Of a DNA stretch of 64,000 nt, positions 42,364-62,066 are shown one piece after another (positions within the stretch are counted from its first letter, which is position 1; each line of letters begins with the position of its first letter). The stretch covers positions 896,001 to 960,000 of the forward strand of contig CBDDIJ010000005.1 of assembly GCA_965228855.1 (NCBI GenBank), in the 5' to 3' direction. Under the pieces are notes generated by a model that was given only the letters and a program-made list of their open reading frames with translations, ran no database searches and was not told the origin of the DNA. This stretch comes from Candidatus Obscuribacterales bacterium (GTDB lineage: Bacteria > Cyanobacteriota > Vampirovibrionia > Obscuribacterales > Obscuribacteraceae). The translations under genes and the position numbers were made by a program.

Positions 42364-43386
42364 TCAGTCAAGCTTTATGCTGCTGCGATGAAATCGTCCA
42401 ACGACGTTGGGGTCAGGATATAGTCTTATCTTCGTGCTCTTGCCAGGGTACTCGAACAAACTCAAAACATATCGAATACTTTCGAGACGCGCCATTTTTT
42501 TATCGTTGGCTCTCACAATGATCCATGGGCTGAAGGACGTATGCGTCTTACTGAACATGTCTTCTTTGTATTCGGTGTACTCGTCCCATAGTTCCTGTGC
42601 GGTATCATCGATAGGACTGAGCTTCCACTGTTTAAGCGGATTGGATCGCCGCGATTCGAATCTCTTTTCCTGCTCGTCTCTGGAGATAGAAAACCAGAAT
42701 TTGATGATTCGCATTCCGTCTTCGTTCAGCATGTGTTCGAACTCGGGAACTTGCTGCATAAATCGTTTGTATTCAGCGTTTGTGCAAAAACCATTTACCG
42801 GCTCGACAACTGCGCGGTTGTACCAGCTGCGATCGAAGAAAACAATTTCTCCTTTATTCGGCAATTGTTTCGCGTATCGCTGGAAATACCACTGTCCGCG
42901 TTCTTCGTCGGTTGGCTTAGGAAGCGCCACAACGCGCATTGCTCTTGGATTTAGGTGCTCAATGAATCGTCGAATAGTCCCGCCCTTGCCAGCGGCATCA
43001 CGCCCCTCCGTGAGAATGGCTATTCTCTCACCGGATTCCTGAACCCAGCGCTGAAGTTTAACTAGCTCAACCTGAAGTTGAACGAGTTCATTCTCATAGC
43101 GCAGAGTCGACATAACATCTTTCAGTTTGATGTTTTTCTGCCGAAGCAACTCAACCAATCCACGATTGTTATTGATCAGGAGCAAGTCTTCGTGGGTCAG
43201 CTTATCCTCTGAGCGTTGAATAGATTGCTTGATTTTAGGTTTTGGAGTCCTTCCATTCGATTCCGCAAGTGCAAGAGGGCTACTCTTCATCTCTGGTGCA
43301 TCGCCATTGGAATCAACAGGTTGAGCCACCTTCACCATTCGCTTTCGAGGAGTCTTAGCTTTCATAGAATCGTTCCGTTTTGCCAT
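42364..43386 (-). CDS. ppk2: Polyphosphate kinase 2
   Basis: EGRDAAGKGG, QWYFQRY, FDRSWYNR, LKQWKLSP. Confidence 0.97.
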   Translation of the reverse strand: MAKRNDSMKAKTPRKRMVKVAQPVDSNGDAPEMKSSPLALAESNGRTPKPKIKQSIQRSEDKLTHEDLLLINNNRGLVELLRQKNIKLKDVMSTLRYENELVQLQVELVKLQRWVQESGERIAILTEGRDAAGKGGTIRRFIEHLNPRAMRVVALPKPTDEERGQWYFQRYAKQLPNKGEIVFFDRSWYNRAVVEPVNGFCTNAEYKRFMQQVPEFEHMLNEDGMRIIKFWFSISRDEQEKRFESRRSNPLKQWKLSPIDDTAQELWDEYTEYKEDMFSKTHTSFSPWIIVRANDKKMARLESIRYVLSLFEYPGKSTKIRLYPDPNVVGRFHRSSIKLD

Positions 43387-43566: not shown

Positions 43567-44238
43567 ATGGTCAAGATCTTATTGGCAGAGGATGACAGAG
43601 CTCTGGGTGAAACCATTGTCGATGTTCTGCAGCGTGAGAATCATTTTGTGGATTGGGAAACCGACGGCAGTTCCGCGTTAGAATTTCTAAAATCCTATCA
43701 GTACGAACTAATAATTCTCGATTGGGAAATGCCGAGCATGACAGGCATTGAAGTTTGCAATGCTTATCGGAATGAAGGCGGCAAATCTCCAGTTCTGTTT
43801 CTCACCCAACGCAGCTCGATCGCTGATAAAGTCACCGGATTTGGTGTCGGCGCCGATGACTATCTTCCAAAGCCTTTCGTAATGAAAGAATTGATACTGC
43901 GCGTCCAGGCACTTTTGCGCAGACCACAAAATCTCGTTAACACGGTGATTGCATCAGGCGACCTCAGTTTAAATTTGGAAACTCGCGAATTCACACGCAA
44001 CGGTAATCCAATTAAATTGTCGCCGATCGAATTCTCGCTCATGGAATTGTTTCTCAAAAATCCAGGCGTAGTTTTCAGTAATGATGCGCTTCTCGATCGT
44101 GTATGGCCGAGTTCCTCCGATCGCTCGCCGTACACTTTGAGAAACTATATGAGAAGACTACGACTGAAGATTTACGCTGAATCAGAAGACCCCAAGATTC
44201 GCACCGTCCATGGTGTCGGTTACAAATTCGACCAATAA
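43567..44238 (+). CDS. OmpR/PhoB-family response regulator
   Basis: LLAEDD, ILDWEMP, GADDYLPKPF, winged-helix IRTVHGVGY. Confidence 0.96.
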   Translation: MVKILLAEDDRALGETIVDVLQRENHFVDWETDGSSALEFLKSYQYELIILDWEMPSMTGIEVCNAYRNEGGKSPVLFLTQRSSIADKVTGFGVGADDYLPKPFVMKELILRVQALLRRPQNLVNTVIASGDLSLNLETREFTRNGNPIKLSPIEFSLMELFLKNPGVVFSNDALLDRVWPSSSDRSPYTLRNYMRRLRLKIYAESEDPKIRTVHGVGYKFDQ

Positions 44239-44295: not shown

Positions 44296-44802
44296 TTAAC
44301 GAGGATTTCGACGCCCTGCCGGACCTTGACGTTCGTGATCGATCAATTCGAGATCAGGCAACAAGGGTGACAGTTCCTTGCCGGATCTGGACTCATGCTC
44401 TTGCAATGTGTTTCTGATTGCTGTGTTTCCTCTTTCGCGACCGGCTTTGCCTTCACGTCCTTCGAGACCTTGCCCGTGAGGCGTTCCCCAGGCGGCATCT
44501 ACCGGCGGCTGTTTTTCCGCGGCACTCTCTTTCCCGCCCTCAGCCTTCGGCTCTTTGTTATTATCTTTTGGCGGGTCTAGCGGATTTTTACCCGGACCTT
44601 CGCATCCTTTCTGCAAGGGGTTTTCTCCACAATCAAGGAAATTAGGTGCGCGCGACTCGCCCTTGCCACCAGGGGTTGGAAATTGTTTTGCCCACAGTTC
44701 CTGGACCTCGAGTGTCAGGTTCTCGATAGCAGGCGTCGTGTTATAGGCGTTGTCAGGTCTGGCTGTTTGGCTCTCGAAGGCATCGAATCTATTATTTGTC
44801 AT
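44296..44802 (-). CDS. Hypothetical disordered protein
   Basis: 168-aa ORF, AAGGA upstream of the ATG, preceded by a copy of the conserved promoter box. Confidence 0.7.
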   Translation of the reverse strand: MTNNRFDAFESQTARPDNAYNTTPAIENLTLEVQELWAKQFPTPGGKGESRAPNFLDCGENPLQKGCEGPGKNPLDPPKDNNKEPKAEGGKESAAEKQPPVDAAWGTPHGQGLEGREGKAGRERGNTAIRNTLQEHESRSGKELSPLLPDLELIDHERQGPAGRRNPR

Positions 44803-44968: not shown

Positions 44969-47140
44969 GTGCCAAATCGATCTTCGATGGCTCAAAAAGG
45001 ATTTCTGGCCGTTCTCATACTTGTAGTATCGGAACTCTGCTTCGTATCGGTCCTCACCTTCGAATTACACTCGCTGCAAGACCAGCTTGAGAAGGAGCGC
45101 CACGCGCGTCAGATAGTAGAACATCTCAATCGATTTACGAGCGCCGCCCAGAAAACCGTTGCAGAGATTTTGAAAGCACTGCCTGTGGCGCAGCAGGTGC
45201 GTGAGGACCTTGGACTGGGGATGTTCAAAGATCAGCTTGCCCTTATGAGGCAGGAGATGCGTGTCCTGAACACACTGCTAAAAGACGATGCCAATTCGCT
45301 GCGATTATTGAGACAACTTGAGGTGGCTACGGCAGAGGAAGAGAGCTCATTCGAATTCCTGCTCAGCGTACCGCACGGGAGCATTGACCAAGCGATGCTC
45401 GCGCCCATGAACTCGTCAGGTGAAAAGCTCACGAGTGTTTGCGACAAGCTGCTACAAAAGTATCAGCGAAGAGACGACGTCACCTCAGTTACCGAGCAAT
45501 CGCTGCAACGGGTCAAGATCACGCTTGCGGTGGGGATTTTGATCGGGCTCGTGGCGAACTTGCTGGCAATTATGTTTTTCATGAGAAAGGTAGCAAGAAG
45601 AGTTTCTCTCATTGCAGACAATATGTCGCGTTTTGCACGCAAGGAAGAACTGCTGCCAGTGCAGCAAGACAACGACGAAATTGGAGATATCGATAAAGCC
45701 TTTCATCGACTTGCAGAGGCGCTCGCAACCGCAGCCGAGCAGGAGCGAATGTTGATAGAGAATGCTACCGATGTTGTTTGTTCAATTGATACGAGAGGAG
45801 TTTTCTTGACCGTAAGCCAGGCTGCCAGCCTGCAATGGGGATATTCGCCGGAAAGATTGATTGGTGAGAACATTGAGGTTTTGCTTCCAGAGGGCTTGAG
45901 TGATCAATTTGAAAAACTGAATGCGCGTATCGCTGAAGAGTCTGACTTGAGTTTTGAAGCGCGGTTAACGAGAAAAGATAATGTCGTTATAGATACTCTG
46001 TGGTCAGCGCACTGGTCCCCGTCGGATGGCTCGCTTTTTTGTTGCGTTCGGGACATAACTGAGACGAAACAGATGGACAATATTGTCGCAGCGCGCGAGA
46101 CGCAGTTGCGCACCGCGATTGAGAATATGCCGGTGGGTATCGTCACTGTAGATACGGAAGGGATGATCAAATCCGCCAACAAAATTGGACAAGCGCTTCT
46201 GAGTTTAGAGACTTCATCGCGCAGTCGAACAGTGGCAGACTTTCTAACGCCACTGGACCAGACTACGAAAGTCGAAAACGATTCGCTCCTTCACATAGAG
46301 AGTTCCAGCCCACTACGGTATGCCATTACCGATGGTAGCGAGGGCAAAAAAATATTTGTCGATATAACCTCGGTTCGCTCGCTATATAGATCGGATGAGA
46401 CGTTCATTCTGCTCGATGACGTGACTGAGCGCCATGTACTGGAAATAATGAAAACGAATCTGGTGACCCTGCTTGGCACTACGTTACACAAGCCACTCAT
46501 TGAGGTTCAAACCATCGTTAATGGTCTGATTGACAGGCAAGCATTCGACGAGTCTAGAAGAGCGCGTTTGAAACGCATTGCTAGCAACACTGTTCGTCTG
46601 CTTGGTCTAATCGAACAAATGCTCAATATAGAAAGCCTAGGTGTCGGAAAGCTGATGGGTGCGATGAGTCCCTGTCAGCTTGAAGACGTTGTTTCAGACT
46701 CGGTCGAGTCCACTAGAGATTACTCCGAACAGCAGCGAATCCAACTTGTATGGGATAAGAACGACTGTCATGCCACCGTGCTTGGTGACGCTCAGCGGCT
46801 AGTGCAAGTAGTAATAAATCTAATCAGTAACGCAATTAAGTATTCACCGGCAGATACGACGGTATCGATAACGGTGGTTGATAATTTTCCTGATCTGGAA
46901 ATTAGAATCTCCGATCAGGGAAGGGGCGTGCCAGAAGAGATGCGCGAAGCAATTTTCCAACCTTTCCTACAAACACAATCAAGCGACGGCAGGCGTGGGG
47001 CTGGAACTGGTCTCGGGCTCTCAATTTGCAAGCAGATCGTCGAAGGACACGGCGGCAGAATCGGCGTCGATGGAAAACCGGAAGGAGGGAGCGTCTTCTG
47101 GATTAAGCTACCGAGGCTCAACGGTGGAGTCTCGACATGA
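44969..47140 (+). CDS. Membrane PAS sensor histidine kinase with intact HATPase and an H-box lacking the canonical His
   Basis: TM-sensor-TM-HAMP-PAS-PAS; N box NLISNAIKYS, G1 SDQGRG, G2 GTGLGLSIC; the H box reads LLGTTLHKPL. Confidence 0.9.
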   Translation: MPNRSSMAQKGFLAVLILVVSELCFVSVLTFELHSLQDQLEKERHARQIVEHLNRFTSAAQKTVAEILKALPVAQQVREDLGLGMFKDQLALMRQEMRVLNTLLKDDANSLRLLRQLEVATAEEESSFEFLLSVPHGSIDQAMLAPMNSSGEKLTSVCDKLLQKYQRRDDVTSVTEQSLQRVKITLAVGILIGLVANLLAIMFFMRKVARRVSLIADNMSRFARKEELLPVQQDNDEIGDIDKAFHRLAEALATAAEQERMLIENATDVVCSIDTRGVFLTVSQAASLQWGYSPERLIGENIEVLLPEGLSDQFEKLNARIAEESDLSFEARLTRKDNVVIDTLWSAHWSPSDGSLFCCVRDITETKQMDNIVAARETQLRTAIENMPVGIVTVDTEGMIKSANKIGQALLSLETSSRSRTVADFLTPLDQTTKVENDSLLHIESSSPLRYAITDGSEGKKIFVDITSVRSLYRSDETFILLDDVTERHVLEIMKTNLVTLLGTTLHKPLIEVQTIVNGLIDRQAFDESRRARLKRIASNTVRLLGLIEQMLNIESLGVGKLMGAMSPCQLEDVVSDSVESTRDYSEQQRIQLVWDKNDCHATVLGDAQRLVQVVINLISNAIKYSPADTTVSITVVDNFPDLEIRISDQGRGVPEEMREAIFQPFLQTQSSDGRRGAGTGLGLSICKQIVEGHGGRIGVDGKPEGGSVFWIKLPRLNGGVST

Positions 47141-49416
47141 CATCGAATGCGATACCACCTAAATCTAGCTTGATCAGAAGAGCACTGCTTCTGTTCGTTG
47201 GCATGATTACATTGCAAATCATATATGTCGCAACCGTTTTTACAATGGTCGAGCAGACCAGCTTGCAAGTGGCGGAGCAGCAGCAGGCGAGACGAGCGCT
47301 CAGCAGCATTGGACGCTTAATGCGAAGCGTGCAGGATTTGATCATCTGCATGGGCAGGGGAGAGATACTTGGCGCCGAGGGGAGCGAAGTTCAGTACCTT
47401 GGACTTCTCGAATCCTTAAATAGAGAGCTTCGCTCGTTAAAAACCACCCTCGCAAACAAATCTCAATATGCCCACACAATCGCCGAGATCGAAACGACGT
47501 GTCAAGCAATTCCCGAAATCTACGAGGAACTGCACGGAAAGAAAAATGGACACGGACACGAGCGAGGGCGAAAAAAACGGCGCAGGAAAAGGCTCCGAGA
47601 ATCACTCAGATTTCACATGGAAGACAAGGTCATGATTATGGGCAAGTCTGACATAGAGTGGTTACGCGTTTATATGTCGGCGAGCGAGGTACTTGCTCGA
47701 TTGGAAGCAATTCAGGCAGACTACAGACAAGTCGAGAAAGAAGCGCAGGAGCATCTGAAGTTTCAATCGAGCTTGCTGTTCAATGCCGCTTTGTTTATGG
47801 GTTTCGCTGCAACAGTATTGGTCGCGTTTCTTCTCTACCACATCTTTATCTCTGGAATCGTTGCGCGACTTCGCATGATTACCAATTCTCTGGATGACAT
47901 TGCCGACGGAAAGACTTTGCAAGACAGGTCATCTGTTGAAGCAGACAGCGCTTCTGATGAGGTCGGACACCTGGCGTTTGAACTGCAGTCGATGGAACGA
48001 GCTCTGCGCAACATCCGAAGTAAGGAAAAGACATTGCTCGAGAATGCCGCAAGTTGTATTTGTTCGATCGACGAACATGGCAAATTTGTGAAGGTCAGCC
48101 AGGCGAGTACGATTCTATGGGGTGTTGCTCCGGATGAATTGCTCGGCTCAGCGTTGATTGATTTGGTAGAAAAGGATGATGTTGATTATGTGGATGAGAA
48201 ACTGAATGAACTCTTTCGCACCCGGCGGCCGGTGACGTTCGAATGTCGAGTACGGCAGTCCGAAGGCGCGGGCGTTGAGTTCGCATGGACTGCCAGTCTT
48301 GCAACAGATCAGAATCTCGCTGTCTGTGTCGCACACGATGTCACTAACCGCAACGAAATACTTCGCCAGATCAAGCAAAGGGAAACTGAATTCCGAGCCA
48401 TGGTTGATTGCATGCCAATTGCGCTTATCACCTGCGATCAACTGAATGCGATTTCTTCAATCAATCCAGCCACGCAGAGGATGCTTAAATACAGCCCTCA
48501 GGATTTACTAGGGAAGAAGCTGAGTACACTTCTGTTCGGTGGCACCAAATCCGGTGTGGCTACAAATGAGCAGATGAACGAGGTGCTAGCGACGGCAGAG
48601 AAGCACACGATCGAATTGCTGGTTTCCAAAGCAGATGGAAGCCGGCTGCCCGTTGAGTTCTCCTCTAGCCAGTACGAACTGCACGATTCGCGCGTGCGCC
48701 TGGCGACTTTCAAAGACGTCTCTGCCAGATTCGAAATCGAGACGGGCAAGAAGGAACTCGTAGCCATGATCAGTCACGACTTGCGATCGCCATTGACCGC
48801 AATTCACTGCACGCTAGAGCTACTCGGGTGCGATAGGAAGAGAACTTCCGACGAGGACCTGAAGAACGCTGAGGATGTTTCACGAGCTGAAAAGATTGTC
48901 TTCTCAATAGTGAATGTTTTGAACGATTTTCTGGACCTTGAAAAATTTCAGGCCGGACTGGTTGCGCTGGAGCTGGATGAACTAGCGATATCTGAGTTGA
49001 TGAGTGAGCTACAAGAGGAACTCGGTTCCAGGGATAAACCGGTGCATTTCTCATTCGACCAAGATGCTGAGGTTTTAGAAACTCGTGTGAAAGTTGATTT
49101 TTCACGGGTGTTATTCGCGCTGTCGACAATCATTCCTGTCATCGACTGCTTTAGCGAAAAAACTCTCGAACTCGAAATTGCGCGGTCTGGCGATCAAATT
49201 CATATGGTGATCAAAAATGGCAACATCCCAGAACACATCGAGAACGCGTTCCAGTCGCCTTACGTGTTTCTTTCGGACGCGGAGCTGAATGGCGTTGTCT
49301 CAAGCGGTCTTAGTCTGAGTCTGTCTCGTGCGATCATCGGAGCCCACACAGGTTTGATGCGCATCGACCGAAAGAATCGGGATTGTCGGCTCGAAGTTTC
49401 TCTACCGATAGCTTGA
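47137..49416 (+). CDS. Membrane PAS sensor kinase-like protein with intact H-box and degenerate HATPase
   Basis: Same architecture; MISHDLRSPL intact; the N/G1/G2 positions read ALSTIIPVID, IKNGNI, SSGLSLSLS; ATGA overlap with the upstream kinase. Confidence 0.88.
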   Translation: MTSNAIPPKSSLIRRALLLFVGMITLQIIYVATVFTMVEQTSLQVAEQQQARRALSSIGRLMRSVQDLIICMGRGEILGAEGSEVQYLGLLESLNRELRSLKTTLANKSQYAHTIAEIETTCQAIPEIYEELHGKKNGHGHERGRKKRRRKRLRESLRFHMEDKVMIMGKSDIEWLRVYMSASEVLARLEAIQADYRQVEKEAQEHLKFQSSLLFNAALFMGFAATVLVAFLLYHIFISGIVARLRMITNSLDDIADGKTLQDRSSVEADSASDEVGHLAFELQSMERALRNIRSKEKTLLENAASCICSIDEHGKFVKVSQASTILWGVAPDELLGSALIDLVEKDDVDYVDEKLNELFRTRRPVTFECRVRQSEGAGVEFAWTASLATDQNLAVCVAHDVTNRNEILRQIKQRETEFRAMVDCMPIALITCDQLNAISSINPATQRMLKYSPQDLLGKKLSTLLFGGTKSGVATNEQMNEVLATAEKHTIELLVSKADGSRLPVEFSSSQYELHDSRVRLATFKDVSARFEIETGKKELVAMISHDLRSPLTAIHCTLELLGCDRKRTSDEDLKNAEDVSRAEKIVFSIVNVLNDFLDLEKFQAGLVALELDELAISELMSELQEELGSRDKPVHFSFDQDAEVLETRVKVDFSRVLFALSTIIPVIDCFSEKTLELEIARSGDQIHMVIKNGNIPEHIENAFQSPYVFLSDAELNGVVSSGLSLSLSRAIIGAHTGLMRIDRKNRDCRLEVSLPIA

Positions 49417-49584: not shown

Positions 49585-50901
49585 TTAATCGCGCGAGGTT
49601 TGAGGGATAAGTACTTCGTCCTCTTTGAGCCTCCAGCATTTCTTCCAGAGTTCAACATGCGTTGGAAAATCTTTTCTAAACCGTAGATCAAAATCACCGA
49701 AGACCGGGTCGTTGTTGTTGCTATAAACAGATAGCAGGAAGTTGATCATTCGTCGATGACCGACTGCAGTACCGATCTCGAATAGTGCTACAGGCGCCTG
49801 GTAGTAGGCTTTATGGAAATCGGCACCACTACGAAGCGGCGAGCGAGGAATCGGTCCTTCGGGTCCTTTCTCAGCCATCTTTCGGAAGAACTCCAGTAAG
49901 ACCTTCCCTCTCTCAGTTTGGGCGCCCGTTGCTGTTGCCACAAATGCAATATATTGCGGAATTCCTTCTACCATCCAGCCATCCTGTCCTTTAAGGTGCG
50001 CACCAAACCAGAAGTGAGATATCTCATGCGCTATAACCGCCCGGCATATCGCTTCTGAAGGATCGGCAGACAGATGAAGCGGTTCCAAACCAGATAAGGA
50101 AAGCTTGCCTCCGAAAGCAGTTCGCGAAAACAAGATCAGATTCCCACTCGGATTGCCGTTGACCGAAGATGTCCCTCCTCTGCGAATCACGCCCACTTTG
50201 ACCCGTCGGTGAGGCAGCTTACCAAATAGCTTCTGCTGCCAGGTCAGCTGGTCAGTAAACCAGGAGAGGTACTGTGGATCTGCCTGAAATCCTTCTGGAA
50301 AGATAAATTCAACTTCTAAGTTTCCACAACGCTTTACGACAGGCTCGGCAAAATGTGCCACCTGAAATTCCAACCCGTTAAACTGGATAACGTCTGTATC
50401 GGAAGTAAGTGCCGAATATCCAGCGGGCAGTTCAAAGCTTGCTTGATAAAGGGCACCGTCGGATTCAACCTCAGGATTAACCAAGGCTTTATTCAGGCAA
50501 TAAATTTCATCGTCTGATGCGGCGCACTTCTCACTGCTAATAGAGGTCTCTCCGACGAAGTCAACTTCTTCACCTCCTGGATCGACATCTATGGTGGAGC
50601 CGTTTTTAACATCAATCACTGAGAGTTTTTTCGAAAAGGTATAGTTTTGCTGTGGGGTGATAACGAATTTCAGCGAGCGATGCCCCTTCCACTTTACCGA
50701 TCCGATTGTCTGGAACTTTGTTTTGTCCATTGCCACTGGTTGGATCTTTAGTTGAAAAATCGGGACATCAGGAGTTTCGGCAGAGGCTGTCGACGTATTA
50801 GCTATTAATGCGGACATTAACGTACCCAATCTCACCAGGGCGCTTGTTCTCATCCACATTTCTCCAGAGTGGTTGTTATGAAACGTGGCGGGAAAAGCCA
50901 C
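49585..50901 (-). CDS. Secreted M1/gluzincin-like metallopeptidase
   Basis: IAHEISHFWFG...WMVEGIPQY zinc motif and AYYQAPVAL. A signal peptide after MWMRTS suggests a slightly later start. Confidence 0.8.
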   Translation of the reverse strand: MAFPATFHNNHSGEMWMRTSALVRLGTLMSALIANTSTASAETPDVPIFQLKIQPVAMDKTKFQTIGSVKWKGHRSLKFVITPQQNYTFSKKLSVIDVKNGSTIDVDPGGEEVDFVGETSISSEKCAASDDEIYCLNKALVNPEVESDGALYQASFELPAGYSALTSDTDVIQFNGLEFQVAHFAEPVVKRCGNLEVEFIFPEGFQADPQYLSWFTDQLTWQQKLFGKLPHRRVKVGVIRRGGTSSVNGNPSGNLILFSRTAFGGKLSLSGLEPLHLSADPSEAICRAVIAHEISHFWFGAHLKGQDGWMVEGIPQYIAFVATATGAQTERGKVLLEFFRKMAEKGPEGPIPRSPLRSGADFHKAYYQAPVALFEIGTAVGHRRMINFLLSVYSNNNDPVFGDFDLRFRKDFPTHVELWKKCWRLKEDEVLIPQTSRD

Positions 50902-51135: not shown

Positions 51136-52833
51136 TCACTTCCTTCGAATGTCGAAGGTGTTTATCTCAGCAAAGTGTTTCTGAAACTCCTCAAAACTGA
51201 TTTTAAACTTTCCGTCGAGCTTCCCATCACGAGCGTCGCCGCCAAGTTTCAGGGGCTCAATTTCTCCGCCGAAATCGCCCTTGTGCGGATTCGACAATTC
51301 CACTTCGCCTGTCTTTTGATCGAATCCGCTTACCTGATAAACGTGCTTATGCATTAACCCGGTGCCTTGCGGAAGCTCCTGATGCGTCCCCGCGGTGACG
51401 CCCTTGTTAGCGTCGTTCACCAGATTGAGCTCAGCTCGAACTTTCTCCTCGACATCTTGAGGTGAGGTACGAATTGACTTGTTGCCAGTCATAGAACTGA
51501 TAGCCTTATGTTCGTTACCGCCCGTGCGAATCTGTTCTTGGACCGCCTGAGTACTGTTGTCATCCATCAGTGTTTTAAGGTGCTGGCTAAACGCTTTCTC
51601 TACAATCGCAGCGGTTTCGCCGCCTCCGAAGCGGGCACGCTCCGCATCAGTTGGTTTTGAAATAACAGTATCAACGTTTCCATAGCGACCTTCGTTGTCG
51701 GGCAGCTTAACTTGGAGCTTTCCGTCACCGAGATCCTTTATCTTGTCGTCGAAAAACGTTGGTTCCTTCTCTAAGATTGCAGCAACTGGAGCAAGAACAA
51801 AACAACTGCCGGTCTGTCCCTGCGACACGGGCAAATCGCTGGCCAGGTGCTTGGTATGGCTCTCCAGTGATTTTTGCAGAGAAACCGCATTGCTGCCTTG
51901 CCGATCTTTCAACTCTTTAGAATCGAATTTCCCGAGGTTGTCGCGAACGGCTTTGAGTCCGTCGCGGGTTATGCCAACATTCGGATCGGTCTCTCCCAGC
52001 TTACCCTTACCCGACTGGGCCGCTCCCCCGGTTTGCAATCCCTTTCCGCCAAGCTCATCCGCCACGTTCTTCCAGTTATCTGCAGCACCATATGCGGTGG
52101 CTAAATAAACCCCGCCTTCGCCGTTTGCTAATGCTGAATTCTCCATTTGCTGACCAAGCTCTTCACGAGTGACCGTACCATTTTGGTCCGCATCGATTTT
52201 CTCGAAATTGGAATCCAGCCAGCCTGTCATTTTTTCCATCGATGTCGCGAATTTTGTGTTGTGCGACGCGTCCGGTTTATAGTCCGGCAAATCCGCAAAT
52301 TTTTCCTTCGCAGCATCATCGGCTTTTGATTTGTCTGACGAAACCGACTTCGCTGCGCCAGACGAGTCACCAGCGACAATCTTCTTCGGGAAGGGAGCTT
52401 TCAGGACATCAAAGTCTGGTTCATCGCCACCACCGGAAGCTTCTTTCTTCGGCGGAAATTGCGATTTTTTGAGAATGGCGAAATCTTCGCCCTCATCTAA
52501 TTCTTCAGCGGTCCCCTCCTGCGAGGAAACCTTTTGCTCTGCCGGTTTTGAAGCTTTCGCAGGCGGAGCGCCGTCCTCCAGACCTGCAAGTGCTCGTGGC
52601 GCGTTGCCGACAATTTCACCGGTTTGCATATCGAGAAACTGCGCATCCTTTTCGGCAACGGTTTTATCATTGCCGCGAGCGACAGAACTTCCGCTGCCAA
52701 CGTCCGTCCCGCGCGTCGATGGCTGACCGTAGACCTCGCGAAGCAGATCATCAAATGGCGAACTCTGCGACGAATCGCGTCCGGAGAAATCGCCAGTATC
52801 TCGCTTTATCGGTTTTTGCTCTATTTCTGGCAT
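51136..52833 (-). CDS. EF-hand plus calpain-like (C2) cysteine peptidase
   Basis: EF hand DADQNGTVTREE; QGQTGSCFVLA (Cys), EKAF, HVYQV (His), LSNPH (Asn); long disordered N-terminus. Confidence 0.82.
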   Translation of the reverse strand: MPEIEQKPIKRDTGDFSGRDSSQSSPFDDLLREVYGQPSTRGTDVGSGSSVARGNDKTVAEKDAQFLDMQTGEIVGNAPRALAGLEDGAPPAKASKPAEQKVSSQEGTAEELDEGEDFAILKKSQFPPKKEASGGGDEPDFDVLKAPFPKKIVAGDSSGAAKSVSSDKSKADDAAKEKFADLPDYKPDASHNTKFATSMEKMTGWLDSNFEKIDADQNGTVTREELGQQMENSALANGEGGVYLATAYGAADNWKNVADELGGKGLQTGGAAQSGKGKLGETDPNVGITRDGLKAVRDNLGKFDSKELKDRQGSNAVSLQKSLESHTKHLASDLPVSQGQTGSCFVLAPVAAILEKEPTFFDDKIKDLGDGKLQVKLPDNEGRYGNVDTVISKPTDAERARFGGGETAAIVEKAFSQHLKTLMDDNSTQAVQEQIRTGGNEHKAISSMTGNKSIRTSPQDVEEKVRAELNLVNDANKGVTAGTHQELPQGTGLMHKHVYQVSGFDQKTGEVELSNPHKGDFGGEIEPLKLGGDARDGKLDGKFKISFEEFQKHFAEINTFDIRRK

Positions 52834-53073
52834 CAGGCACACGAATGAAACCGGGGTTGAGGTCCGGTTTTGATATTGGAGCGTGCACCCATGTTATTCA
52901 GTAATTGTGGCTAAAATGTGCCCGTTTTAGCAGGTGCGGCTCAATACCCATCCAGGTGATCTTTGGGTGAACATTTACCGTTGCTCAGATGTTTTTAACC
53001 AGAGCGAATTTATGGCATAGATCGCGCCTTTTTACGCTAATAATCTTTCTCGGCAGAGATATCGAACGCGTCA

Positions 53074-53586
53074 ATGAGTAAACGCGATCGCTCCTACAAT
53101 AAAGGCACCCACATGATCAATCAGGACCGCATCACGGACGATGTGCTAGATAACGTGCCAGTTATTTGTGTTTTGAAGGACGCTTATGGCGCGTTTGTCT
53201 ATTGGAACGAGGCGCTCAACCGTGCTTTCGAACTTCCCGCTGATGGTATGCGAGGGAAAACCGAATATCACTTCATGCCGGACGATGACGCGGCTGCAAT
53301 TCGCAACAACGACCGCAGGGTTCTGGCGACTGGTGAGGCTCTTAGCGCAATTGAATTCACACAATTCGCGGACGGCACTAGAGCCGCCTGGTTGGTAAAG
53401 AAGTTCCGAGTCGTTGTGAATGAGCAGAAATTTTTAGGCGTTATTGGTTGCCGCGTAGCAAACTATCCCGCCGACGCAAATACTTCTGAGAATATTCTGG
53501 CTCCGCATCTAGAACTTTGCACCAGCCGCCTGGCAGAGGTCGCTAAATCCATACGCCCACGTGACTATCTGCCGCCCGAATTATAG
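53074..53586 (+). CDS. Stand-alone PAS-domain protein
   Basis: LDNVPVICVLKDAYGAFVYWN...GKTEYHFMP...NDRRVLATG (PAS_4-like). Confidence 0.85.
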   Translation: MSKRDRSYNKGTHMINQDRITDDVLDNVPVICVLKDAYGAFVYWNEALNRAFELPADGMRGKTEYHFMPDDDAAAIRNNDRRVLATGEALSAIEFTQFADGTRAAWLVKKFRVVVNEQKFLGVIGCRVANYPADANTSENILAPHLELCTSRLAEVAKSIRPRDYLPPEL

Positions 53587-58805: not shown

Positions 58806-59570
58806 ATGTTTGAATCTCACGATAGTGCAAATTCACAAACCTCCGGCACCGCAGAAGATACCAGCTTATACTTGTCCGACTTCGTAATGAATACAATAAA
58901 GGAATCCGGTTCCTCGTTTAACCCTGATTTACGGACCAGCAACACACAAGAAACAGCTAATAGTAACGACTCACAATTTCTAGAGTTCGGTCCAATCCCT
59001 GGAGTCGTAGCACTTAAGCCGGGCGAAATACCGCCGTCGCCCATCGTGCGCGATCAACTGGAAGCAGAGCTTCGTCTCAACGCCATCACTCCGCCCGGCG
59101 ACGGCGAATTCGACGCGCTATCCAGAGATTTAAATCACGCCTTTGTATCAGGCGATTTGAGTGAATTTCAACGAGTTCTGCAATCTACTAATGACCTCGA
59201 TATGAGAAACAGTCTGGTAGATAAACTAGATGAGCGGCTGGACGCTCTGGAGCAGGGATTGCCGAACGAGACGCAAATGTACGCAAACGGCAACTCGATG
59301 GAGTTTTTCCCCGAGGACGAGCAGCGCGTCTACGGATTCACGATGGATCTCAACACGAATGAAACAAACGCGATACTCGCCGACGTCACAAAAGTCAACG
59401 TCAACGGCAATTGGTATCCGGCAATGGTGCCGGTTTTGGACGAAAACAAGCAGCCTGTCCAGGTAGATACTGATACAGCAAAACTATTTCAAACACTGAC
59501 CCAGAATGAAGTGCGCTCAATCGCCTCAAGCAACGAACCTCTAGGAACAATTGAGCCGGTTGAACGCTAA
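58806..59570 (+). CDS. Hypothetical acidic protein, tandem paralog 1 of 3
   Basis: MFES start; LNHAFVSGDLSEFQRVL...LDERLDALE core. Confidence 0.85.
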   Translation: MFESHDSANSQTSGTAEDTSLYLSDFVMNTIKESGSSFNPDLRTSNTQETANSNDSQFLEFGPIPGVVALKPGEIPPSPIVRDQLEAELRLNAITPPGDGEFDALSRDLNHAFVSGDLSEFQRVLQSTNDLDMRNSLVDKLDERLDALEQGLPNETQMYANGNSMEFFPEDEQRVYGFTMDLNTNETNAILADVTKVNVNGNWYPAMVPVLDENKQPVQVDTDTAKLFQTLTQNEVRSIASSNEPLGTIEPVER

Positions 59571-59573
59571 TCT

Positions 59574-59605
59574 GGTTCAAAATTGTCATAACCATTCGAT
59601 AAATT
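59574..59605 (+). promoter_or_regulatory. Conserved box plus -10 element (copy 3)
   Basis: GGTTCAAAATTGTCAT-AACCATTCGA-TAAATT; 18/18 identical to copy 1 over the box. Confidence 0.7.
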
Positions 59606-59753
59606 AGAAGCATCGAAAAACGAGTGGCTCTCGAACGCAAGAATGCAACGAATCCATCGGCTTGATGGTCTGAACTCTCGGTTTTAAATCAGTTCTATCA
59701 CGGTCTCGAAGACGCAATCAACTTCAATCGTTTCTATTAAAGGAATAATTACT

Positions 59754-60647
59754 ATGTTTGAATCAAGCGATGCCGCAAACGGTTCGGCCAATAGCACCAC
59801 TGATAATACCAGTGCAGCGCTCTCTAGTTTCGCATTCGATTCAATGAAGGAAATGCGACCGTATCCGAAGCCGGATTTCAAGGCGATGAGCGAGCAGTCG
59901 AATCCAGTCGTCGAGTTCGGTCCAAAGGCCGTAGGTACGGTGGGAGCAGTCGGAGACAAAGGTCATGGCTGCGCATTACCCTCATTCACCGAACTTGAAC
60001 TTCCCAGCGATGCCGACCTCAACTCACCTGCAGATGCTGGCAGCGGGAAGACAGGCGATAAATCTAAGTGCGCAACACCTGAGGTCAAGGAGCCAGGTGT
60101 GAGCCACGATAATCCGAATCCGAGAAGCAGCGATGAATTAACCCAGGAAGCTCTAGACCGGATGGAAACCGAGATACGCCTCTACAATCTAACCCCCAAA
60201 GACGATTCGCCTTATGCGGAGCTGTCTAGAGAACTCAACCACGCATTCGTCTCCGGCGACCTGAAAGATTTTACAGATGTTTTGAAGAAAACCGACGACG
60301 TCCAACTTCGAGAAAAGTTAGTCAATGACCTGGATTCACGCCTTCAAAAGCTAGAGATGGATCTGCCCGGCGAAACGGAGATGAACTCATTTCTGGGAGA
60401 GTTCAATCTCTACGGCGAGGCACCGGGCAAATCGGCGGCGCTGGTTATCGACATGAGCACAACAGATGCAAAAACTGTAGACGCCAATGTTGACCGCTGG
60501 AAGCTTAACGACAATCTCTCGATTTCAACGATGAAGCCAATTGCTGACCTGGACATGAATCCGGAAGACCTGTTCCGCTCTTTGACCCGGGGTGAGGTCC
60601 ATTCGATCGCTAGAAGCAACGCGCCGATTGCCAGCCCGCTTTCCTGA
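59754..60647 (+). CDS. Hypothetical acidic protein, tandem paralog 2 of 3
   Basis: MFES start; LNHAFVSGDLKDFTDVL...LDSRLQKLE core. Confidence 0.85.
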   Translation: MFESSDAANGSANSTTDNTSAALSSFAFDSMKEMRPYPKPDFKAMSEQSNPVVEFGPKAVGTVGAVGDKGHGCALPSFTELELPSDADLNSPADAGSGKTGDKSKCATPEVKEPGVSHDNPNPRSSDELTQEALDRMETEIRLYNLTPKDDSPYAELSRELNHAFVSGDLKDFTDVLKKTDDVQLREKLVNDLDSRLQKLEMDLPGETEMNSFLGEFNLYGEAPGKSAALVIDMSTTDAKTVDANVDRWKLNDNLSISTMKPIADLDMNPEDLFRSLTRGEVHSIARSNAPIASPLS

Positions 60648-60694
60648 AGTCACGAAACGTCGCATCACCACATTACATCACAAGGACCCAACTC

Positions 60695-61381
60695 ATGTTT
60701 GAAACACACGATGCTGTCGGCAATCAGCCTGTTAACACCACTGATAGTACCAGCTCGATTTTATCCGGCTGCGCATTCGATTCGATGAAACAACTGGCTG
60801 GCTGCGCGCGACCATCCTTTGAAAACAAAGGCCCCTCCGAAAATCCAATCTCGGAAATTGGACCAAAGGTCGCTAAAGGGGTGGCGGAGACAATCGAAGC
60901 TGGACCGACAGACTCATCGAGTTTTGACGATCAGATCAAAATGTTGAATTCGTTTATCAAGGCAAACAGCCCGGAGGACCGCAAGCTAGCAGAAAACTTG
61001 AACAGTGCGTTCATTTCCGGTAACATCAACTCGTTTGCCGATGTTTTGCAATCAGCGTCCGGCGACCCGATGGAGCTAAGAAAAGCTGTCATGGCGCTAG
61101 ATGCTCGGCTAAACCTTCTCGAAGGTTCAAAGCCGGACAACGCACTAGACATGAAAATGTTGAATGGATTTGTATTCGTGTGGCCCGAGCGCGGCGGTCT
61201 ATCGAAGGCTCTTCAAATTGATACCAGGGATGGCGAGGTAAAAGCGTTTCCTTCAGTGGTGACTCGAGAGGGGACACCCCACATAAACGTCGAGCAAGAG
61301 CTCAACCTTGATTCGGCTTCGTTGTTTAGCTCTATGGTGCGAGACGAACTTGGAACACTGCGATATCCAACTCGCCGATAG
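60695..61381 (+). CDS. Hypothetical protein, tandem paralog 3 of 3
   Basis: MFET start; LNSAFISGNINSFADVL...LDARLNLLE core. Confidence 0.85.
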   Translation: MFETHDAVGNQPVNTTDSTSSILSGCAFDSMKQLAGCARPSFENKGPSENPISEIGPKVAKGVAETIEAGPTDSSSFDDQIKMLNSFIKANSPEDRKLAENLNSAFISGNINSFADVLQSASGDPMELRKAVMALDARLNLLEGSKPDNALDMKMLNGFVFVWPERGGLSKALQIDTRDGEVKAFPSVVTREGTPHINVEQELNLDSASLFSSMVRDELGTLRYPTRR

Positions 61382-61388
61382 ATACAAT

Positions 61389-62066
61389 CTACTGTGTCAG
61401 TTCAAACTTGTAACCGACACCATGGACGGTGCGGATTGCTGAATCTTCGTTCTCTTTATAGATCTTATTTCTGAGGCGCCTCATGCACGTTCTCAACGTG
61501 TCTGGTGAACGCTCCGAAGTTGCCGGCCAAACTCGGTCGAGTATAGCGTCATTGCTGAAAACCACGTTCTGGTTTTTCAAAAAGAATTCCATTAGGGCGA
61601 ATTCAATCGGAGACAATTTGATTTTCTCGCCACCTCGGTAGAATTCATGGGTCTTTGGATGAAGCTCCATGTCGCCGGCGCGGAGAACGTTCTCGACTAT
61701 CGCTTTGGGACGTTTCAACAACGCGCGAATGCGAGCAGATAGTTCTTTCATCGCGAATGGTTTGGGCAAGTAATCATCGGCGCCGACATCAAAACCGGCG
61801 AGCTTATCTTCGATAGCCGCTCGCGATGTTAGAAAGAGAATTGGCGTCTGACCGCCCCTGCTACGAAATTGGGTGCAGACTTCAATGCCTGTCATCTCCG
61901 GCATTTCCCAATCAAGAATCACGGCGTCATACTCAAACGCTTTCAAATGCTCCAGTGCATCAGCGCCGTTGTTCTTCCAATCAACGAAATAGTTTTCGTT
62001 CTCGAGCCAATCTACGATTGTCTCACCCAGTCCATGATCATCTTCGGCTAACAGAATCTTTGCCAT
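61389..62066 (-). CDS. OmpR/PhoB-family response regulator, close paralog of 43567..44238
   Basis: Shares ILDWEMP, GADDYLPKPF, IKLSPIEF, VVFSNDA, IRTVHGVGYKF. Confidence 0.96.
   Translation of the reverse strand: MAKILLAEDDHGLGETIVDWLENENYFVDWKNNGADALEHLKAFEYDAVILDWEMPEMTGIEVCTQFRSRGGQTPILFLTSRAAIEDKLAGFDVGADDYLPKPFAMKELSARIRALLKRPKAIVENVLRAGDMELHPKTHEFYRGGEKIKLSPIEFALMEFFLKNQNVVFSNDAILDRVWPATSERSPDTLRTCMRRLRNKIYKENEDSAIRTVHGVGYKFELTQ

Follow-up and report, generated by a model that had tools for sequence, protein, structure and literature searches.

In this work we describe two coupled sensor kinase genes, K1 and K2, at positions 44969 to 49416 of a 64,000-nucleotide stretch of DNA (the window; assembly GCA_965228855.1, contig CBDDIJ010000005.1, positions 896,001 to 960,000) from a Candidatus Obscuribacterales bacterium, each of which has lost the half of the histidine kinase reaction that the other retains: K1 lacks the phospho-accepting His and has an intact catalytic and ATP-binding (CA) domain, whilst K2 keeps the His in its dimerisation and histidine phosphotransfer (DHp) domain and has a degenerate CA domain. 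From comparison with related sequences, we consider it likely that K1 and K2 form an obligate heterodimer in which K1 phosphorylates His547 of K2. A sequence-only reading had proposed such a trans-phosphorylating heterodimer, and it is now supported by linked reciprocal losses, mirror-image selection, matching trees and crosswise loss in fused relatives; the coordinates, codons and motifs quoted by this reading were all found in place. The features of the pair are as follows, with residues numbered relative to the phospho-His position (H):

44969..47140, + strand: K1, 723 amino acids (aa), with the order transmembrane segment (TM)-sensor-TM-HAMP-PAS-PAS-DHp (no His)-CA (intact); predicted catalytic, ATP-binding subunit
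46478..46480, + strand: codon ACT of K1 Thr504, at the phospho-His position; the acidic residue at H+1 is lost as well (Thr505)
46487..46489, + strand: codon of K1 His507 (H+3), proposed substitute phosphorylation site
46817..47023, + strand: N, G1, F and G2 boxes, all intact in K1 (Asn621, Asp649, Gly651/653, Gly679/681/683), invariant in 11/11 aligned K1-type proteins
47137..47140, + strand: ATGA stop/start overlap of K1 and K2, suggesting translational coupling
47137..49416, + strand: K2, 759 aa, K1-like architecture, DHp with His547, degenerate CA; predicted phospho-acceptor/donor subunit
48775..48777, + strand: codon CAC of K2 His547, inside MISHDLRSPL, invariant in 12/12 aligned K2-type proteins
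49117..49326, + strand: degenerate CA motifs of K2, without the N-box Asn and DxGxG, and with SSGLSL as G2 box (two G2 glycines gone)

Pfam searches gave mirror-image scores for the two proteins: K1 reached 106.5 bits with HATPase_c (cut-off 26.4) and 12.3 bits with HisKA (cut-off 26.9), K2 42.6 bits with HisKA and 13.3 bits with HATPase_c. Each protein exhibits two TM segments and two PAS domains together with a weak HAMP match below the cut-off, in agreement with the layout first assigned to both. Alignment of the K1 family profile with that of the K2 family (probability 100) spans 722 columns, beginning at the first TM segment and reaching the end, and in this alignment Thr504 pairs with His547 without a gap and Asn621 pairs with Val668, confirming the gap-free H-box match and the reciprocal defects that had been read from the sequence. 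Compared to a canonical HisKA kinase, K1 thus carries Thr504-Thr505 in place of the phospho-His and acidic H+1 residue and retains the CA boxes, and K2 carries His547-Asp548 and has lost the Asn, the Asp and two G2 Gly residues: the His and the ATP site lie on separate, co-encoded proteins, as in a split kinase. Assembly or sequencing error as the origin of these losses was ruled out, as two public contigs cover the stretch with 0 differences (these contigs may be the source of this DNA) and K1/K2 orthologs at 76-97% identity carry identical losses. The sensor domains of K1 and K2, when searched alone, gave no Pfam match; CHASE3 matches at E<=0.05 were obtained for 4/11 K1-type and 1/12 K2-type proteins, and with so few matches a CHASE3-like sensor is a hint only. 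The outside sensor domain of K2 contains a strongly basic insertion (window ~47540-47610, K2 residues ~135-158) that is present in three orthologs and not in paralogs. A scan for promoters and terminators gave results at chance level.

The same complementary arrangement recurs across the genome of this organism (8.2 Mb, 6 contigs). Using a profile built from 16 local kinases we found 104 HisKA-like genes, which fall into 80 intact, 8 His+/CA-dead, 9 His-less/CA-intact, 5 whose G1 box is atypical and which adjoin no His-less gene, 1 lacking both elements and 1 without an alignable H-box. Every one of the 8 His+/CA-dead genes has a His-less/CA-intact gene next to it; of the 9 His-less/CA-intact genes, 8 are next to a CA-dead gene and the ninth is unrelated. 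Kinase genes lie side by side on the same strand in 14 pairs, of which 8 are reciprocal, a number reached in 0 of 100,000 label shuffles either over all kinases or over the members of adjacent pairs only, which argues that the reciprocal pairing is not due to chance. Four of the eight pairs, K1/K2 included, form a group that we term clade A; fewer PAS domains are present in the remaining four, two of which show the reversed gene order.

Related genomes had been named as the place to look for pairs or fusions with the same losses, and both were found. Five CA-dead sequences served as queries against 107 genomes of the order. The loci retrieved contain 289 distinct complete DHp-CA units; only the top loci per search were fetched, so that all counts describe a sample, and related sequences are not independent. 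Amongst the CA-dead units, 59 of 67 lie beside a His-less unit, which contradicts the possibility that the losses are sporadic and unlinked; the remaining eight comprise one pair with an internal stop, one with a His-Asn partner (L035), two without a visible neighbour at a contig edge, three with truncated partners and one with an atypical-G1 partner. Conversely, 59 of 64 His-less units stand beside a CA-dead unit and two beside a partly damaged one, with the last three being the pair with the internal stop, the unrelated ninth gene and L105, where the complement lies within the same chain. A degenerate neighbour was found for just 1 of 153 intact units (L035). Counted from the genome labels, complete pairs occur in 33 genomes under 11 genus codes and clade A in 9 genomes under 4 genus codes. 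Junctions (n=63) overlap by 4 nt in 36 cases and by 8 nt in 14, where the script takes the start nearest to -4 and hence favours such overlaps. Elsewhere in the phylum the K2 type was not found in 400 other genomes with seven candidates scored in each, the one weak match being an intact kinase.

The fetched loci also include two reciprocal pairs in tandem that form a four-gene array (L241/L242; G050:C11, ~95-102 kb), and closely coupled tandem pairs of intact kinases (L040-L043, L046, L071, L120, L125, L160, L161), which are candidates for the ancestral state. In one genus, His-less subunits of another clade have a conserved His at H-1 (MVHSELKEP; L272, L274, L275, L277, L278, L280-L282), and in a further clade of His-less subunits a His is common at H-7.

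Conservation follows the retained halves. Among the paired proteins (64 CA-dead and 64 His-less), H, D/E, R, T/S, P and L within H to H+6 are present in all 64 CA-dead subunits and the docking Thr at H+7 in 52/64, whilst the ATP motifs are all retained by the His-less subunit, with the N-box Asn in 64/64 and the G1 Asp in 63/64; an Arg of helix 2 is present in 62/64 His-less subunits and lost from the CA-dead subunit, and the hydrophobic core of the four-helix bundle is kept in both. These patterns suggest that each subunit retains its own share of what a trans-acting heterodimer would need. Ratios of nonsynonymous to synonymous substitution rates (dN/dS), calculated by the Nei-Gojobori method against the G002 ortholog (dS ~0.8-0.9), mirror this division: in K1 the CA domain shows 0.06, the DHp domain 0.20 and the sensor 0.17, and in K2 the DHp domain shows 0.07, the dead CA domain 0.20 and the sensor 0.13. 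Over whole genes the values are 0.155 for K1 and 0.152 for K2, within a range of 0.10-0.17 for the pair and 0.04-0.09 for three sister pairs. The outside sensor domains of both K1 and K2 are maintained by purifying selection.

A separate line of evidence comes from single chains of ~1000-1270 aa with two complete TM-sensor-TM-HAMP-DHp-CA modules (L288-L301, L326-L340 and L105), of which one genus has as many as 10 matches in a genome. Chains were counted as reciprocal if one module lacked the His and the other lacked two or more of 8 key CA residues, and L331 (a stop between two intact modules) was excluded. On this basis 18 of 28 fused chains are intact in both modules, eight are reciprocal, two have lost only a His and none shows both losses in the same module; as degenerate queries were used to find these chains, the proportions are biased. 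The eight reciprocal chains correspond to roughly five groups: four lie in one clade (support 99), L339 and L337, with opposite polarity, each have a place of their own among intact chains, and L292 and L105 stand far apart from these. Given five independent events, the chance probability of an all-crosswise pattern is ~0.03. Loss that is only ever crosswise points to trans phosphorylation within an intramolecular pseudo-dimer, where cis phosphorylation would predict loss within the same module. In L294 the His of module 1 has become Gln and the Asn-Ala of module 2 has become Thr-Arg, and the chain lies, with full support, inside a clade whose modules are otherwise intact. Considering two-gene pairs only, a single origin of all His-less partners was not rejected (approximately unbiased (AU) test, p=0.164, 40 rows), with 5-8 state changes among the two-gene clades. 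With fused modules added the single origin was rejected (AU p=0.0005, 28 rows), for a group chosen post hoc and resting mainly on L294. The fused modules thus imply, as far as their sequences can tell, that reciprocal loss has arisen repeatedly.

In a tree of the TM2-HAMP-PAS-PAS region, which does not contain the trait, K1-type and K2-type proteins form one clade each (12 rows each; Shimodaira-Hasegawa-like approximate likelihood ratio test (SH-aLRT) 100), and the two clades share matching subgroups, so that the pair duplicates as a unit. L044, a thirteenth pair with the same architecture, falls outside both clades. The tree gave no clear support either to K1 and K2 being direct sisters that arose by one tandem duplication or to their descent from the intact tandem pairs L040-L043. 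Upstream of K1 and further along the window lie the following genes:

43567..44238, + strand: OmpR-family response regulator with intact phospho-Asp (REC + Trans_reg_C), likely cognate partner
44296..44802, - strand: open reading frame (ORF) of 168 aa without Pfam match, between the regulator and K1, in the same place in G007 and G002
61389..62066, - strand: orphan regulator of the OmpR family, with 66% identity to 43567; sole other member of that clade in the genome, possible second output

The 43567 regulator has an ortholog at the same position in G007 and G002, and in a tree of 51 OmpR-type proteins (39 from this genome and 12 chosen from the loci) it falls into one group (support 99) together with 61389 and the regulators that neighbour clade A pairs in two further genera. 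Its conserved position and this grouping make 43567 the likely cognate regulator.

We propose that K1 and K2 assemble as one membrane sensor kinase, a stable K1:K2 heterodimer for which coupled translation would ensure a near 1:1 supply of subunits. K1 would bind ATP, its ATP domain would phosphorylate His547 of K2 in trans, and the phosphate would then pass from K2 to the OmpR-family regulator 43567 and possibly also to 61389. The K1 homodimer and the K2 homodimer would each be kinase-dead; a K2 homodimer might act as a phosphatase, given that the H-D-x-x-S motif is kept. The two outside sensor domains may respond to separate signals or may together make up a single composite binding site. 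As for its origin, the pair may derive from intact trans-acting paralogs that already heterodimerised and thus had two redundant cross reactions: decay of one of these would remove the His from one subunit and the ATP site from the other, making the partnership obligatory. Modelling of the complex between the K1 and K2 DHp-CA parts, carried out for the heterodimer only, gave a score of 0.58 compared to 0.00 for the best control, with at least 82% contact agreement between runs and a partner predicted local distance difference test (pLDDT) value of at least 74. In calibration, 116 of 157 solved complexes and 2 of 215 mismatches attained the pass mark, with scores of 0.60 or lower obtained by only 18 of the 157 and by both mismatches; since kinase dimers have solved structures, the pass may reflect structures already known to the predictor, and the model shifts the odds of K1:K2 binding little. 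The mean DHp net charge in clade A is +1.6 for K1-type and -4.8 for K2-type proteins, with intact kinases at -1.9 ± 2.4: these opposite charges hint at pairing and are in part a consequence of the motif changes themselves.

Several observations weigh against this heterodimer reading. Cis phosphorylation occurs in some histidine kinases (PMC5956149, in the part of the text accessible). For three of the genome's four clade A pairs, no regulator lies within 3.5 kb; with four pairs and two regulators in the clade, convergence of the pairs on shared regulators may be the case. One K1-type protein (L035:7731-9923, G002) carries a canonical-site His (codon CAC, where its sister has CGC) with Asn as the next residue, probably through a secondary change, and a clade A pair in G006 (L038/L030, G006:C4) contains an internal TAA in the K2-type gene, through recent loss or assembly error. 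Five kinases of this genome (G000) carry Asn for the G1 Asp and have no His-less neighbour (C2:1976308, C2:2405335, C3:365948, C3:2960282 and C5:1260321). Finally, the fused chains come from another, shorter family with HAMP only and support the mechanism by analogy within the lineage, and a fused clade A protein was not found among 1321 candidates of 1330-3795 aa, which is weak evidence.

The strongest competitor is a split kinase without a stable heterodimer, in which K1 and K2 are homodimers and K2-His547 is phosphorylated through transient dimer-to-dimer contacts, as in CheA4/CheA3. This would generate an identical pattern of reciprocal motifs and linkage, CheA3 and CheA4 are described as acting through transient binding in the accessible text of PMC3591291, and the complex model lends the heterodimer weak support; the full collinear TM-sensor-HAMP-PAS-PAS-DHp stalk in both proteins, however, fits one register-matched dimer, and both the crosswise loss within one polypeptide and the opposite DHp charges in clade A speak against transient contacts, which leaves this explanation unlikely. 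We regard as somewhat less probable still that both proteins are non-catalytic regulators, K2 being a His-phosphotransfer protein or phosphatase fed by another kinase or by reverse transfer, and K1 a DivL-like allosteric pseudokinase that binds ATP or a regulator. ChpT and Spo0B are examples of His-phosphotransfer proteins, soluble DHp proteins with a degenerate CA domain and no sensor; K2, in comparison, has two TM segments, a sensor, HAMP and two PAS domains under purifying selection. Its regulator-docking helix and H-D-x-x-S motif would suit such a role, the ~80 intact kinases of the genome are potential phosphate donors, and the accessible text of PMC12963549 and PMC12189002 reports His-less pseudokinases (DivL, PsmA). 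Left unexplained, however, are the near-exclusive co-occurrence of both types, the invariant catalytic motifs of K1 with its low CA dN/dS and the crosswise pattern of the fused chains.

That K1 could act autonomously via the shifted His507, with K2 as an accessory, appears very improbable. The residue does share a helix with the canonical site, three positions away, and His is found there in this genome, G007 and a single G006 paralog (L038). However, the G002 and G006 orthologs and one G021 paralog have Gln at this position, most other paralogs have Arg, and no acidic residue comes after it. His507 is not a conserved substitute site, as judged from these sequences; as a substitute phosphorylation site it was therefore set aside as unlikely, and the earlier caveat that the downstream His might take over is largely removed. 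Least probable of all, in our estimation, is neutral decay of two redundant paralogs: the internal stop in the G006 pair and the large kinase expansion in the lineage would be in keeping with decay, but the low whole-gene dN/dS of the pair and its sister pairs, the open frames across four genera and the strictly complementary losses are not.

The concept of a split or heterodimeric kinase has precedent in FasB/FasC and CheA3/CheA4, and FasB/FasC is the closest experimentally tested system. In FasBCAX of group A Streptococcus, according to the accessible part of PMC12675982, a two-hybrid assay found FasB and FasC to form a heterodimer but no homodimers, His246 of FasC is required whilst the FasC kinase domain is dispensable, and the authors, who call kinase heterodimers rare, propose trans phosphorylation followed by transfer to the regulator. 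Like K1/K2, these are two co-encoded, membrane-bound kinase-like proteins, but as far as this text goes FasB keeps histidines, cis phosphorylation is not excluded, the membrane part of FasB is dispensable and the regulator is ComE-like. K1/K2 differ through strictly reciprocal loss, purifying selection on both sensors, HisKA/HAMP/PAS architecture, eight pairs in one genome and a linked regulator of the OmpR type (REC + Trans_reg_C), by which they were set apart without comparing the FasB/FasC sequences. In CheA3/CheA4 of Rhodobacter sphaeroides, neither protein is reported to autophosphorylate alone and the ATP domain and His lie on separate proteins; these are class II kinases in which whole domains are absent, with a transient complex and, in the accessible text, no membrane sensors (PMC3591291), whereas K1 and K2 are full-length class I paralogs that keep all domains and have lost only motifs. 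Domains typical of class II (HPt, CheW-like) gave no Pfam match in K1 or K2. In HK1/HK2-TcrA of Mycobacterium tuberculosis, the ATP domain and the His domain reportedly lie on two proteins that serve one regulator, the two being small complementary fragments of one gene, in contrast to the two full-length sensor paralogs K1/K2. The name of this system appears in a table of PMC9321153. DivL, PsmA and RetS-GacS resemble the present case as His-less kinase-like proteins or as heterodimers between different kinases, but act by allostery or inhibition, and the accessible text describes no complementary ATP-dead partner (PMC12963549, PMC12189002). A literature search found nothing on the kinase pairs of this lineage, with most subscription papers and supplements outside the search.

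In the neighbourhood of the pair, a polyphosphate kinase 2 gene (window 42364-43386, - strand) is divergent from the 43567 regulator, and a weak M1-like metallopeptidase (49585-50901, - strand) is convergent with K2. They are accompanied by a protein of 568 aa whose matches to EF-hand and calpain-like (Peptidase_C2) domains are weak and below the cut-off (51136-52842, - strand), by a stand-alone PAS protein (53074-53586, + strand) and, next to 61389, by three adjacent ORFs without Pfam match that have a similar acidic, Ser/Thr-rich start (58806-61381), possibly a regulated or secreted family.

Sensor kinases are usually regarded as homodimers, and genes such as K1 and K2 would be annotated as either broken or ordinary. 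What is added here to the known precedents is the density of such pairs (eight in one genome), a matched regulator clade and a series of fused intermediates. With 16 of the 104 kinase genes being half-enzymes in complementary pairs, this design is regular in the signalling of the lineage. We tentatively suggest, as a possibility that we hold to be less likely than its alternatives taken together, a ratchet in Obscuribacterales whereby tandem or fused trans-acting paralogs lose one His and then the idle ATP site of the partner, repeatedly giving rise to obligate heterodimers: intact, His-only, reciprocal, fused and unfused stages coexist, and the four clade A pairs with two regulators and near-identical His helices could allow partner swapping and a combinatorial two-input code. 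The crosswise pattern offers a readout of trans phosphorylation from sequence alone, and the fused relatives provide a natural series from intact to reciprocally degenerate chains that makes the transition from homomer to obligate heteromer by complementary loss testable. If both sensors bind separate ligands, the pair would be a ready-made asymmetric or AND-type sensor in which the contribution of each subunit to signalling could be dissected separately.

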